Shown here: positions 3,003 through 15,044 of the stretch, one piece after another
Layout of the letters: each line of letters begins with the position of its first letter
Numbering within the stretch: the stretch's first letter is position 1
NCBI GenBank assembly: GCA_963727445.1
Contig: CAVSGI010000021.1
Location: 693,975-757,974, forward strand
Length of the DNA: 64,000 nucleotides
DNA from: an uncultured delta proteobacterium
GTDB lineage: Bacteria; Myxococcota_A; Polyangia; Polyangiales; B10-G4
Reading direction: 5' to 3'
The notes under the pieces: model-generated
Database searches by the model: none
What the model was told of the DNA's origin: nothing
What the model saw: only the letters and a program-made list of their open reading frames with translations
Made by a program: the position numbers and the translations under genes

Positions 3003-3034
3003 AAGCCCCGTCTCGAAAGAGACGGGGCTTTTCT
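3003..3034 (+). terminator. Rho-independent terminator of the rrn operon
   Basis: Perfect 12-bp stem AAGCCCCGTCTC-GAAA-GAGACGGGGCTT followed by TTCT; GNRA loop. Confidence 0.9.
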
Positions 3035-3055: not shown

Positions 3056-3829
3056 TCAGCGGATCTCGAGCTCGAGCTCGGTGATCACGACCCGGTCGTC
3101 GCAGCTGTCCCGCATGAGGCGCACCTCCACCCGAGCCGTGGTGGGCTCCGGCAGGCGCGCAACGAACCACTCGGTCGCCGGGGCGCAACCGGCGCCGTGA
3201 GCGTCGCCGTCGGCGTCCCACAGAACGTCGGTCGTGTAGGTGGGCGTGCTGTTGTCGAAGACGTCCTCCACCGCGTCGTTGCCGGTCTCGCAGGTCCAGG
3301 CGTCGCCGACGAGAGGCGGGGGTGGGTTGCCGTTGTCACAGGGACAGCAGTTGTCGCAGCCGGGGGTCGAGGATTTCATCAAGCCAGCGGCGAAGGTCCA
3401 CAGGTGCTGTCGAGGTGGCTCGGTGGTGATCGAGACCCCATCGACGTAGACCTCGTCGAGCGTGGTGCCTGCCGGCGAAAACGCGTCGGAGCTCTGGCCC
3501 TGAAGGCCCCGGACCCGGCCGCGCAGCTCCCGCCAGGGGCTCACCGTCGGCGGGATCAGGATGGAAGTGGCCAGCGAGTCGCACGTGCGCATGGACCCCT
3601 CGCAGGCGACCGCGAAGTCGGCGGGCGAAAAGCCTTCGGGGCACGGATCGCGTCCCGCGACCCACGAATAGAGCGGTACGAAGGGGCCCGGTCCATTGGC
3701 GTCGGCGTCGACACCGGTCGTCGCGTCCATCCGTCCCGAATCCGGGTTCCCCTCCGCGGGGTCGTCCAGCAAGAGCCCGCAGCCTGACAAGAAACAACCG
3801 ATCGCCAACAAGGCCGCTCTCGCCGACAC
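3056..3829 (-). CDS. Cys-containing lipoprotein with a domain resembling an uncharacterised sponge-expanded protein family
   Basis: Lipobox FLSG-C; motifs YVDGVSIT..PRQHLWTFAAG, CPC, CETG, LWD, WF..LP.PTT..VEVR. Confidence 0.75.
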   Translation of the reverse strand: MSARAALLAIGCFLSGCGLLLDDPAEGNPDSGRMDATTGVDADANGPGPFVPLYSWVAGRDPCPEGFSPADFAVACEGSMRTCDSLATSILIPPTVSPWRELRGRVRGLQGQSSDAFSPAGTTLDEVYVDGVSITTEPPRQHLWTFAAGLMKSSTPGCDNCCPCDNGNPPPPLVGDAWTCETGNDAVEDVFDNSTPTYTTDVLWDADGDAHGAGCAPATEWFVARLPEPTTARVEVRLMRDSCDDRVVITELELEIR

Positions 3830-3866: not shown

Positions 3867-4829
3867 TCAGTCGGCCCGTGCGGGGAGGCGAAGTCGAAAC
3901 TCCTCGCTCGGGCCGGTCCGCTCGCCGTAGTGGTTGTCGTTGATCATCACGAAGTCGCCGGCGTCGATGGCGAGACCTTCGAGGTTCGGATCGCCTTCGA
4001 GGGCACCGCCGAGATCCACCACCAGCTCGGGAACGATGGGGGCGGCGCCGGGTGCTTCTGGGACGACGAAGCGAAGGATGCGCATCACCTCGTAGTGGCG
4101 CTCGATCGCGAACACTTCGATGTTCGTGCCCTGGGCTCGGCAGGCGAGGGCGCTGATCTTGCCCGTGGCGGTGCTGAGCTCGACGTCGTAGCCCGACCAT
4201 TGCCCCGAGGTGAGGTCGCCGCGGGCGAGGGCGGTGGTGCAGATGCCATCGTCGCGCGTGAGCTTCGGTTCCACCGCCGCGATCACCGTTTCGCCGACTG
4301 CGCAGAGCCCCTCGATCCCCTTGTTCTCCGCCGGGGACACGGAAAGGACCGCATAGGGGAGCTCGATCCGGGAGGTGACGCGGGCGGTCGCGCCCGGCAG
4401 CGCCCCGGAGACTTCGACCAGGTACACGTGATCCGAAGGTCGGTCGTCGTCCATGGACTCGGTGCCAATCGCGAAGCGCCGGCCACCCAGGTGAGCGATG
4501 GATTCGGCGTCGGCTTCTTCGGGAAAGCCCTCCAGCGGGATCACCGCTTCGACGCGTCCGTCGCGAAGCGCCACCAGGAACGGGCTCCGTTCGGGCACCG
4601 CCCAGAGCATTCCTTCGTCGTCGATGGTGAGCCCGGAGAGACCGTCGACGGAGAGGTCGAGCACGGTGCGTCGCGGCTCGCTCTCCGCGGTCGGGGGCGG
4701 CTGAGTCGAGGGCAGCTCGGTCGAGGCGTGGCCATCGGAGGGCGTGGAAGTGGCTTGCGTCGGAGTCGCGCCGCCGCAAGCCGAGAGCGAGAGGGCAGAC
4801 ACAAGAGCCACCAGGATGCGTGTGTGCAC
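3867..4829 (-). CDS. Lipoprotein, probable beta-propeller (SdiA-regulated / esterase-like phytase fold)
   Basis: GTG start VHTRILVALVSALSLSA-C (lipobox); repeated blade motifs LSGLT, ESIA, IEGL, ISAL, LEGL. Confidence 0.65.
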   Translation of the reverse strand: MHTRILVALVSALSLSACGGATPTQATSTPSDGHASTELPSTQPPPTAESEPRRTVLDLSVDGLSGLTIDDEGMLWAVPERSPFLVALRDGRVEAVIPLEGFPEEADAESIAHLGGRRFAIGTESMDDDRPSDHVYLVEVSGALPGATARVTSRIELPYAVLSVSPAENKGIEGLCAVGETVIAAVEPKLTRDDGICTTALARGDLTSGQWSGYDVELSTATGKISALACRAQGTNIEVFAIERHYEVMRILRFVVPEAPGAAPIVPELVVDLGGALEGDPNLEGLAIDAGDFVMINDNHYGERTGPSEEFRLRLPARAD

Positions 4830-4876: not shown

Positions 4877-6631
4877 TCAATGCGAGATGGCGGTTTGCGC
4901 CGCGGGGATGTCGCGGGTCGAGGCGCGGTGCTGGTGCCCGCGGATCCGCCCGCGGAGCACGTCCACCACGATGGGCGTCTCCAGCTCGAAGACGTACCCC
5001 GTCCGATCGATGTCGACTTCGCCCGAGAAGCCCTCGACTTGGACCGGGATGCGGATCGACATCGGGCGATGCCCGAGCCGGCGGTGGCGACGGTGCTTCA
5101 GGATGAAGGAGAACAGGCGTAGCGCTCGGTGGTTGTGGAGCCGGTGGCAGCCGAGGGAGGCACGGCGCCAGATGCTCGTGTAGTCGCCGCTGCCGTGGGT
5201 GCGAATGCCCTCGTCGCTCCCCAGCTCGAAGGAGCCATCGGCTCGGCGGGTGAAGCGCCGATGGTAGGCGGCGACCAGCCCGTAGGCCGACGCATATCCG
5301 GGGCCCACCAGGTCCTGGTTGATCTCGCTGATGAGCTCGCCCTCGAGGGTGCGCCGGGTCTGCATCACGAGCGCCGAGGGGGGAACGTCGTCGGGGGGGA
5401 GCCACACCGGTGCGCTGACGATCTGTGCCCACGCGCGACGGCCGACCGGCGACTCTTTGTAGCGCCAGATGCTTCGGCCGTTCTGACGCAAGAGGCGCCA
5501 GCCGCCGATGGTCGTGCCGTAACGCGCCATCGGAACCCGCCGGCCTCCGAGCTCCACGAAGAGGGTGAGCGTCGGCCGATGCTCGATGGGCTGCTCGCGC
5601 GGGGTGCCGTCCTCCTCGTAGGGGAAGTCGTACCAGACGTCACCGCGGTCGATCACCACCGAGATGTCGAGCTCCGTCGCCCTCTGGTACTCGGGGAGCG
5701 CGACGCCGCGGATCGCCACCGTGCAGCTCCCGGTCGGGTCGCCGACCTGCTCGAGGAAGCGGCGTGCTCCCGCGGTGGTGGAAAGGCCGAAGGCGCGTTC
5801 GATCTGCGTCGCGATCTCCACCTCCAGATTGCGCACCGTCTGGTGGTGCCCGTCGCGGTCGCGATAGGTCGCCGGACCCTCGTTCCGATCCGCGCCGCTT
5901 CCGTCTTCGATCACGCCGAGATCGAGCATCGCGCGCTCGGTCAGGGCGCGGACGAGAGCGCGACGCTCGAGCTCGAGGGGCGCCGCCTTCAGGGCCGTGA
6001 GCGTTGGCCCGGTGAGGCTCCCCCGTGCGTAGATGCGGTGGCGTCGTTCGAACTCCGCGAGGGCTGCGCGCATTCGGGGATCGAGCGCCCCGTTGGGTCG
6101 CCACCGGTAATGACCGTCGCAGACCAGGCGCTCTTGAATGGCGCGGATTGCGGCCCGGTCGGCGGCGTTGATCGCGGCGGGATCGGGCTCCTCGTCCTCT
6201 TCCAGATCGAGGCCGTCCCACGAACGGATCCTGTCGAGCCCGGCCTCGTCGTAGCAGTCCGCCCTTCGGACGTGCTCGAATCGTCGCGCCAGTACCGCGA
6301 GGGTGGGCACGATCCCGTAGAGCTCGAGGTAGCCATCGCGCTGGGCGCGACGACCGTGGTGGTCGTCCGGCCAGGCCTCGTTGGCGAGCGCGCGATAGGT
6401 CGCCTGGTAGTGGTTGGGTCTTCGCGTGCGTCCGTTGGGACCACCGAGCCCATCCGCGAGGATGTCCGGGACCCAATCGTTACCGAGCTCGACGACCATG
6501 AGGCCGCGCGCTTCGGCGTCATCGACGGTGATCAGGTCCTCGACGTCGCCCCGAACGAAGAACGGCACCCGGGCGTCGTTCGCGGCCCGAGCTTCGGGGC
6601 GCACGCAGAGCGCGCGCCCCGACTGACTCAC
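4877..6631 (-). CDS. L,D-transpeptidase (YkuD) family protein with peptidoglycan-binding domain
   Basis: Catalytic motif IRTHGS..ASLGCHRL; P.W.PP motif; PG_binding-like AIQERL..G..D..MRAALAEFERRH..G.L..PT. Confidence 0.85.
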   Translation of the reverse strand: MSQSGRALCVRPEARAANDARVPFFVRGDVEDLITVDDAEARGLMVVELGNDWVPDILADGLGGPNGRTRRPNHYQATYRALANEAWPDDHHGRRAQRDGYLELYGIVPTLAVLARRFEHVRRADCYDEAGLDRIRSWDGLDLEEDEEPDPAAINAADRAAIRAIQERLVCDGHYRWRPNGALDPRMRAALAEFERRHRIYARGSLTGPTLTALKAAPLELERRALVRALTERAMLDLGVIEDGSGADRNEGPATYRDRDGHHQTVRNLEVEIATQIERAFGLSTTAGARRFLEQVGDPTGSCTVAIRGVALPEYQRATELDISVVIDRGDVWYDFPYEEDGTPREQPIEHRPTLTLFVELGGRRVPMARYGTTIGGWRLLRQNGRSIWRYKESPVGRRAWAQIVSAPVWLPPDDVPPSALVMQTRRTLEGELISEINQDLVGPGYASAYGLVAAYHRRFTRRADGSFELGSDEGIRTHGSGDYTSIWRRASLGCHRLHNHRALRLFSFILKHRRHRRLGHRPMSIRIPVQVEGFSGEVDIDRTGYVFELETPIVVDVLRGRIRGHQHRASTRDIPAAQTAISH

Positions 6632-13775: not shown

Positions 13776-15008
13776 TCAGCGCCGCCGGCGGCGGCGGCGA
13801 ATGACGAGGGCGAGGCCGGCGGCGAGGAGAACGCCGGGCGCGCCCGCGTAGCGGAGGTCGCTGATGGTGGCGCCGCGTGCGTCGGCGCTGACGGGCGTGA
13901 CGTCGATCACGTGGAAGCGCGGGACGTCGTCGCCGCCCGGGAAGTCGAACTCCGGATCGACGGTCATGTCCTCGGGCGCCATCGTCGTGAAGAAGCGGGT
14001 CACGTAGGCGTTGCGGTCGAGGATGGCCTGGGCCTCGATGTCGGTGACGCCGCCCTGCAACGTGTCCGTGGGCGCCGCGTACTCGGTGACGAAGGCGCGC
14101 CCGCCGGCGTCGGAGATCGCGCGGGCGACCTCCACCGGATAGGTGGTCTGCGCCGTCACCGAGAAGTCGGGCCGGATGGCGTCGTAGTCGGGCTCGGTCG
14201 ACAGGTACGCGCCATCGGGCGCTGCGCGGTCCGGGCCGAAGGCGAGGACCATGACATCGAGGAGCGGCACCGAGGCGATCGCGGTGATGCGGAGCGGGAC
14301 GCAGGGCTTCTGGCCGGTGTAGGTGAGGACCACCGGATCGAGCGTGCCGGTGCCGACACCGACCGGCTCGTACTTGAACGCGACGAAGAGGTGCCCTTCG
14401 CTCACGTAGTCGCCGATGAGCGTCGCGGCCTCGTCGGGGACGTCGTAACCGTTGAGGCTCAGCCACTCGATCAGCTGATCGGAGGTGTCGCCCGAGATGG
14501 TCGCGGTCTCGTAGTCGCCGACGCGCGACGCGTCCCAGACCATCACGCCGTCCACGTCCATGGTGCCGTCCGCGAAACCCGCGCCGCCACGCGCGGAAGG
14601 CGCCGCATCGTACGCCGCTCCGCATCCGGCGCCGCCGCCGCCACCGCGGCTCGCGCCGGTCGCGCGATTCACGAAGCGGAACTGCGGGTTCGTCTGACCG
14701 TCGAGCTGATCGAAGGTCGCGGCGTCCGCGATACCCACCTCTGGCAGCCCGAGCACCGGGATGATCCACGAGAAACCGACCGGCGCGTTGCCGTCGTATC
14801 GGATCTGGACGTAGGCGCGGATGGTGCCGTCCTCGTGCTTTTCGAAGATCACCCGCTCCGCCGCCTGGACCACTGGCTGTGGCCCGCTCCCGCCTCCGTC
14901 GCAGAAGAAACCGCCGCAAGCCTCGGCGGGGGTGGGCAGACTCGCCCAGACGAGGCCTGCCACCAGGCCGGATGCGGCAAAAAGCCAGATCTTCGAGCTC
15001 GACACCAT
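13776..15008 (-). CDS. DUF2330 domain protein with C-terminal TM/Arg-rich anchor
   Basis: Signal ..AEA-CGGFFC, QAAERVIF, YVQIRYDG..FSWIIPV, WLSLNGY, PLRITAI, FVTEYA; GGAGG RBS. Confidence 0.85.
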   Translation of the reverse strand: MVSSSKIWLFAASGLVAGLVWASLPTPAEACGGFFCDGGGSGPQPVVQAAERVIFEKHEDGTIRAYVQIRYDGNAPVGFSWIIPVLGLPEVGIADAATFDQLDGQTNPQFRFVNRATGASRGGGGGAGCGAAYDAAPSARGGAGFADGTMDVDGVMVWDASRVGDYETATISGDTSDQLIEWLSLNGYDVPDEAATLIGDYVSEGHLFVAFKYEPVGVGTGTLDPVVLTYTGQKPCVPLRITAIASVPLLDVMVLAFGPDRAAPDGAYLSTEPDYDAIRPDFSVTAQTTYPVEVARAISDAGGRAFVTEYAAPTDTLQGGVTDIEAQAILDRNAYVTRFFTTMAPEDMTVDPEFDFPGGDDVPRFHVIDVTPVSADARGATISDLRYAGAPGVLLAAGLALVIRRRRRRR

Positions 15009-15024
15009 CGCTCCTCCAAACCCA

Positions 15025-15044
15025 GCTGTGCCAGATGGCACAGC
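15025..15044. promoter_or_regulatory. Perfect inverted repeat in the divergent DUF2330/PEGA intergenic region (operator or 5'UTR hairpin)
   Basis: GCTGTGCCA-GA-TGGCACAGC. Confidence 0.45.

Follow-up and report, generated by a model that had tools for sequence, protein, structure and literature searches.

The 64,000-nucleotide stretch of DNA analysed here (the window), from an uncultured bacterium of the phylum Myxococcota, encodes a small lipoprotein that raises a question about the history of an animal protein family. A first-pass annotation had proposed that this protein, beyond its lipobox, carries the domain of a large secreted family of demosponges such as Amphimedon, and that the sharing could reflect transfer between kingdoms. 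Here we ask whether the likeness is real, whether the window protein is itself the link between bacteria and sponges, in which direction the domain is likely to have moved, and what its role could be.

The gene (3056..3829, minus strand, read from 3829 to 3056; GTG start, TGA stop) encodes 257 amino acids, in which the lipobox and all of the quoted motifs are found in the quoted order. Its N-terminus has the charged N-region, hydrophobic stretch and cysteine-bearing lipobox (L-S-G-C) of a signal peptide II (residues 1-17, 3779..3829, minus strand), and it is highly probable from these features that the product is a lipoprotein, with Cys17 as the predicted lipidated residue. The lipobox cysteine is aligned across most full-length bacterial relatives, and a lipobox-like cysteine lies within the first 45 residues of 28/44 bacterial-type relatives. 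The signal is followed by an acidic Asp/Gly/Ala/Pro linker of 30 residues (residues 18-47, 3689..3778, minus strand), which differs in length among relatives, many of them carrying a YCDxxxxGGGW module at this position, and then by the sponge-shared domain of 210 amino acids with 10 cysteines (residues 48-257, 3059..3688, minus strand). The public database gene call for window positions 3056-3829 (P0002) begins at Met34 and thereby misses the lipoprotein signal.

The GC content of the gene (0.69) is that of its 758-kb contig, and its GC3 is 0.86. A single-sequence search found eight close homologues at 52-77% identity, and 13 of the 16 differences listed between the gene and sequencing run X1 sit at third codon positions of this frame, a count among listed differences from which three X4 differences in the linker were excluded. 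Host-like composition, homologues and third-position bias together indicate a real gene of this genome. Searches of Pfam, NCBIfam, PDB sequences and the ESM Atlas with the window protein gave no usable match. A relative from another Myxococcota genome locus (L002) shares 65% identity over the C-terminal 170 residues of the window protein, and the same genome as the window holds a second copy of the domain, a paralogue on contig C9 with 39% identity. Four DNA sequencing runs, labelled wetland, soil and salt marsh, match the gene (shares of 0.05-0.14), and no RNA sequencing run was listed as containing it. Since the reads of three DNA runs that were placed on the gene are short pieces, none of which covers it whole, we claim no habitat for it.

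Next to the gene lies a convergent rRNA operon (23S rRNA, 1-2679; 5S rRNA, 2877-2993), which is closed by a terminator-like hairpin (3010..3028, plus strand); 60 bases separate the end of the gene from the 5S rRNA. No sigma-70-like promoter was found for the gene. The co-oriented upstream gene (3867..4829, minus strand; start estimated by eye) likely encodes a second lipoprotein with a phytase-like propeller; it is not kept beside homologues of the window gene, and no conservation was seen when the gene neighbourhoods of the window gene, the paralogue and L002 were compared. In two genomes the domain gene adjoins yajC-secD-like genes, named by eye. We also observed several other proteins in these surroundings. 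A 610-aa probable lipoprotein with beta-helix-like repeats and a weak NosD match directly precedes the paralogue (L001:8402-10234, minus strand). Three proteins have no NCBIfam match: an exported protein of 421 aa that ends in a membrane anchor and an Arg-rich tail (window 13776-15041, minus strand); a 584-aa protein near murE-like and transglycosylase genes (window 4877-6631, minus strand), whose SxGCxR-like motif we take to recall L,D-transpeptidases; and a 709-aa repeat protein (L002:2490-4619, plus strand), the repeats of which presumably recall those of the major vault protein.

The proposed likeness to demosponge proteins was borne out. Two Halichondria panicea proteins (LOC135347143 and LOC135351229) match the window domain, with 34% identity over 193 aa (pairwise E 5e-26) and 36% over 154 aa (E 3e-25), and an uncharacterized Dysidea avara protein does so with 35% over 166 aa. 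When a database of 5.8 billion sequences was searched with the single sequence, the 51 matches comprised the gene itself, eight bacterial-type lipoproteins and 42 animal-type secreted proteins (31-40% identity, E 2e-22 to 3e-12). Given the pairwise E values to named sponge proteins and these 42 matches, the likeness lies far above chance; it is significant over the whole domain, and homology with the sponge family is virtually certain. When the C-terminal 171 residues served as query in an exhaustive search, 2,426 protein clusters matched at E 0.001 or better, and the best 150 of them were 41 bacterial-type and 109 animal-type clusters, these labels being assigned by profile score, amino-acid composition and features, with few rows bearing species names. 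The three species names on the 240 rows listed by two profile searches all belong to demosponges (two Halichondria panicea, one Dysidea avara), and these two species represent distant demosponge lineages. Amphimedon itself is absent by name from all search listings. The window protein and the sponge family have the whole domain, its motifs and its predicted fold in common at 34-36% identity. They differ in that the window protein has a lipobox where the sponge family has a plain signal and collagen or coiled-coil tails, lacks the YCDxxxxGGGW module and two extra cysteine pairs of the sponge forms, and belongs to a separate bacterial clade.

Relatives of the domain are also encoded by 404 stretches of metagenome contigs. 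From the best 80 of these, 79 loci were retained, 76 of which have a GC content below 0.52 and sparse coding. At 70 of these 76 eukaryote-type loci at least 85% of the domain lies in one reading frame, a count that, coming from the best 80 of 404 matches, favours unbroken genes. In the low-GC examples printed, a signal peptide often shares the frame of the domain. Neighbours of the low-GC copies include a rhodopsin-family receptor (7tm_1), a WWE and RING protein and a kinase, with Pfam matches in 7 of 12 neighbour frames. Low GC, sparse coding, animal-type neighbours and the single frame identify these copies as genes of animal DNA, most of which have no intron within the domain.

On the bacterial side, the window protein is not the isolated carrier that had been pictured. 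Across the phylum, a profile scan that scored six candidates per genome found the domain in 24 of 401 genomes, in 19 of 255 genera and 12 families; in the window's own class it occurs in 4 of 301 genomes. The bacterial profile recovered it at full length in 3/41 relatives. The domain is a patchy, diverse and so far unnamed family across the phylum Myxococcota, and it did not prove to be a broadly distributed family that is already known, no Pfam or NCBIfam model covering it. Among 30 distinct bacterial genome loci, the domain is C-terminal in 23, follows the YCDxxxxGGGW module in 24 and comes after cysteine/aspartate repeat stalks in 12; other partners include Ig, PKD, P-domain, thrombospondin-3-like and MXAN_6577-like parts. 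No recognised catalytic domain is fused to it in the 13 plus 22 proteins scanned. The nearest named model is NF040941 (GGGWT_bact, a fibrinogen-like YCDxxxxGGGW domain), which matches 18 of the 19 bacterial-type relatives tested directly before the domain, 17 of them over the cut-off. It spans 46 positions only and is absent from the window protein (no NCBIfam match), and neither Pfam nor NCBIfam has a model for the 210-aa domain behind it. The module on its own is common in the phylum, and the two module genes of the window genome are located elsewhere in that genome; the clade of the window protein has lost the module or never had it. The phages, plasmids and viral contigs searched held no relative of the domain. 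Three loci (L021, L022 and L032) encode the domain followed by another copy of the module and, at the C-terminus, a cysteine-containing domain of a different kind.

Three tree analyses agree that the animal-type rows form one clade, apart from a single protein (P0194). The clade comprises 23 of 24 rows with support of 100/95 and, with both named species included, 27 of 28 rows with an SH-aLRT of 96 under a mixture model. For the trees, six duplicate loci and two duplicate proteins were removed, the 271 animal-type domains were reduced to 38 with less than 50% identity, among which both named ones were retained, and 43 further near-duplicate, short or long-branch rows were excluded from two of the analyses. 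The neighbours of the sponge clade are bacterial double-cysteine proteins, which have the same two extra cysteine pairs as the sponge forms. This motif is present in 259 of the 271 animal-type domains, for 267 of which a double-cysteine row is the best bacterial match, and identities between the two groups reach 44-49%. The subtype was found in seven genomes from three families, all of one class that is not the window's and in which the domain occurs in 9 of 107 genomes; no other bacterial subtype in the trees is as close to the sponge genes. The window protein lacks the motif and sits deep within another clade, one of lipoproteins, and a tree uniting this clade with the animal-type rows was rejected (p-AU 0.003). 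The window protein is a distant cousin of the sponge genes, neither donor nor recipient, and the notion that it forms the transfer link itself has to be given up: the bridge to sponges is the double-cysteine subtype of the other class, and the window gene is an unexceptional, outlying representative through which the family came to light.

Two groups of proteins in these trees deserve separate mention. P0194 is a secreted eukaryote-type protein that combines a coiled coil and EGF with the module and the domain. It lies beside the double-cysteine bacteria and not in the sponge clade, a position that may reflect either a separate acquisition or the first branch among the animals. The double-cysteine bacterial proteins P0145, P0060 and P0199 (L134) have a common N-terminus, which in P0145 weakly matches, below the cut-off, the N-terminal part of a Bdellovibrio mosaic adhesive trimer model (E 9e-5; PMC10769870) and suggests fibre-like carriers.

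The phylogeny that the first-pass annotation had recommended for polarising the transfer placed the sponge-type clade beside the double-cysteine bacteria, and its polarity, obtained without an outgroup, favours bacteria by a small margin. Midpoint and MAD roots both lie among bacteria, with the animal stem ranking 37th and MAD scores of 0.232 for the best root and 0.259 for the animal stem. Bacterial rows are more diverse than animal ones (mean path lengths of 1.88 and 1.47), in a comparison that underestimates sponge diversity, since the animal-type sample (the best 150 of 2,426 and the best 120 of 1,399 clusters) is biased to sequences near the queries. Bacterial roots, bacterial diversity and one-frame sponge loci near animal-type genes favour movement from bacterium to sponge, a direction that we consider probable, although an intronless gene could also move from sponge to bacterium. 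The transfer between kingdoms that had been proposed is likely: the family is likely native to the Myxococcota and likely entered a demosponge ancestor in a single event, with expansion in the sponge lineage afterwards.

Other histories would have to explain the same distribution. The domain could have arisen in animals, as a module plus sandwich derived from collagen or fibrinogen C-terminal kin, moved from a sponge lineage into one Myxococcota class, spread, and lost cysteines until it ended in stripped lipoproteins such as the window's. Such a history is unlikely: the unrooted tree does permit a root on the animal stem, animal-type clusters do outnumber bacterial ones among the best 150 listed, the sponge form aligns end to end with a procollagen C-propeptide (see below), bacterial presence is patchy, as in the window's class, and single-exon genes are transferable, but the MAD and midpoint roots and longer bacterial paths point the other way, as do the many architectures in 12 bacterial families, the frequency of the module on its own in the phylum, and a cysteine that is confined to animals (35 of 38 animal rows, none of 76 bacterial rows and not the window protein). 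A still smaller probability attaches to an old domain that is more widespread than sampled, in other phyla, protists and animals, with the observed pattern left by loss and sampling. The phylum scan covered Myxococcota only, most matches lack a species name and P0194 stands apart in the tree, all of which would suit great age; the identities of 44-49% between bacterial and sponge-type domains are nevertheless high for it, all three named eukaryote rows are from demosponges, and the phages, plasmids and viral contigs are without a match. That sponge DNA strayed into a bacterial bin, or bacterial DNA into sponge assemblies, is a negligible prospect even though both sides consist largely of metagenome assemblies, for the window gene has host GC and GC3 on its long bacterial contig beside an rRNA operon, sponge-type copies lie in low-GC, sparsely coding DNA near animal-type genes, and two named sponge proteomes contain the domain.

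AlphaFold2 models of the window domain (pLDDT 92.9) and the Dysidea protein (pLDDT 91.5) have an all-beta core. Foldseek gave no match reaching E 0.001 with either model; a full structural aligner placed both among galactose-binding-like jelly rolls, and a jelly-roll fold is very probable on these models. The best match of the window model is a porphyran-binding module (8xmz; Z 9.0, rmsd 2.8, 119 aligned residues), with best Z values of 9.0 and 8.9 in two listings against an aligner background of 7-8. CBM16 (Z 7.4-7.9), CBM4, CBM22, CBM29 and CBM36 are also among the matches, and so are the protein-binding domains of the Eph, MAM and reelin types. Because Z values of 8-9 barely exceed background and Foldseek E values exceed 0.001, these matches support a common fold and not kinship. 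With the carbohydrate-binding modules (8xmz, CBM16, CBM4, CBM22 and CBM36) the modelled domain shares a beta-sandwich over 115-135 aligned residues at an rmsd of about 3-3.6, but the identity is 7-12%, some 80 extra residues lie in cysteine-rich loops, and no glycoside hydrolase is attached. A single weak match in a viral fold library (8% identity) was dropped.

Over 114 aligned rows, three cysteine pairs co-vary, namely C63-C76 (phi 0.86), C83-C243 (0.91) and C164-C215 (1.0), and C162 and C180 are near-invariant; the remaining C158 and C161 may pair together. The most conserved stretch runs from Gln110 to Trp144 (3400..3502, minus strand) and includes Q110, D115, F117, Y128, D130, G131, R140 and H142; the last hairpin runs from Glu235 to Asp245 (3095..3127, minus strand). 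His142 is invariant (114/114 rows), R237 is present in 113 rows and an acidic residue occupies position 245 in 110, and Q110, D115, Y128, D130, E235 and D241 are conserved in bacterial and animal-type rows alike. From strand order and the C83-C243 link, Q110, D115, D130, H142, E235, R237, D241 and D245 likely form one putative ligand site.

Another structural neighbour of the sponge form is the fibrillar collagen C-terminal domain (COLFI, PF01410), which is classed as a jelly roll. The sponge model, module and sandwich together, aligns end to end with the C-propeptide of procollagen III (4ae2_B; Z 7.8, rmsd 4.1, 170 of 214 residues, model positions 39-303 on chain positions 30-245); this is the match best spanning both parts, 5k31 is matched as well, and Foldseek E values are 0.002-0.006. 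Some sponge members resemble COLFI proteins further in their Gly-X-Y tails (Gly-X-Y stretches occur in 46/363 animal-type proteins), and Pfam COLFI matches 23 of 147 family members. The family could accordingly be read as a remote COLFI relative that serves protein assembly or protein binding, as a chain-joining stalk tip, and not glycan binding. We find this improbable, as the Z of 7.8 is within background, the sequence likeness ends with the module of roughly 55 residues (in relatives the match is limited to about positions 19-71 of the 233 in the profile), and no COLFI entry is found among the top 50 matches of the window's module-less domain at Z cut-offs of 6.0 and 6.4, below which an unlisted family may score. 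Pfam COLFI has no match over the window protein. A trimer prediction for a bacterial protein with module and domain scored 0.01, which weighs neither way. Intelectins and fibrinogen-related domains are the best sequence matches of the family profile (E 3e-9 to 8e-8), by way of the module; the likeness ends about 70 positions in, leaving the full domain uncovered, and neither group is among the 50 structural matches listed for the window and sponge models. Intelectins are also the language-model (ESM Atlas) neighbours of one sponge-type member, but the likeness does not extend past the module, and an intelectin reading of that member was given up for this reason. For placozoan 'intelectins', too, a comparable match limited to the module has been described (PMC6321704). 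A broader proposal, which we hold to be doubtful, is that the architecture of the collagen C-propeptide, with its fibrinogen-like module and jelly roll, exists in predatory Myxococcota in a bacterial version that serves as an adhesin tip, that it was handed to a demosponge ancestor, where it became one of the largest secreted recognition families of these sponges and was re-fused to collagen and coiled-coil tails, and that the same bacterial pool is a candidate source of animal COLFI.

The top structural matches are binding modules, the domain mostly occupies a C-terminal tip position in relatives and it has no recognised catalytic fusion partner in the proteins scanned; for these reasons it is probably a non-catalytic binder, and a glycan is the ligand that we would name, at somewhat below even odds. 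That the domain is a secreted enzyme, in which a jelly-roll scaffold would carry, for instance, polysaccharide lyase, epimerase or hydrolase activity and His142 would be the catalytic residue, is considerably less plausible. The invariant His with Arg and Glu, within a set conserved across kingdoms (Q110, D115, Y128, E235), would also suit an enzyme, jelly-roll enzymes occur in the match list (a Fischerella cyclase at Z 6.9), and earlier transfers to sponges were mostly enzymes according to PMC10176882 and PMC4784904, but the conserved residues may be structural, and stalk tips, tandem copies and collagen or coiled-coil tails suit avidity. Returning to a binding role, the window protein would be exported, lipidated at Cys17 and held out on its acidic linker, with about five disulfides bracing long loops on the predicted beta-sandwich and the conserved polar and acidic set forming a ligand site, possibly with calcium. 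In relatives the domain caps repeat stalks in the manner of an adhesin tip, and it may bind at the cell surface, with glycans on prey, matrix or particles as its most likely ligands. After a single early passage into demosponges the family would have expanded, giving rise to secreted, collagen-tailed, coiled-coil and tandem forms. As a whole, this reading, a lipid-anchored surface protein with a jelly roll that likely binds glycans or similar ligands, from a family whose home is likely the Myxococcota and which likely reached an early demosponge in one transfer, has in our estimate a probability of about 0.5.

In a full-text search, with subscription papers and preprint supplements outside its reach, we found no description of this domain family. 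The accessible parts of PMC6321704, PMC10176882, PMC4557014 and PMC13342648 do not name it, and neither do those of PMC4784904 and its four supplementary files in a term search; those of PMC4784904 and PMC10176882 contain no myxobacterial or fibrinogen/COLFI-like transfer entry. The bacterium-to-sponge transfers that these two papers report, of peptidases and a spherulin in Amphimedon and of mesocyte hydrolases in Spongilla, are events of the same type, with expansion in the sponge, and mostly concern enzymes (PMC4784904, PMC10176882).

In conclusion, we identified a real, unnamed domain family common to Myxococcota and demosponges. Jelly-roll surface binders and bacterium-to-sponge transfer are already known kinds of finding, and this family is probably a new case of both. 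For a large unannotated family of secreted demosponge proteins, the analysis thereby supplies a predicted fold together with a likely role and source, and the partial COLFI and fibrinogen labels on some of its members are seen to arise only via the short module. What was probably transferred, early and out of a predatory phylum into animals, is a surface recognition domain and not an enzyme; if the COLFI link were true, it would also bear on the origin of the collagen C-propeptide. The small bacterial versions are expressible and can be screened for ligands, which makes the role of the sponge family, whether in microbe sorting or in the matrix, open to experimental test.
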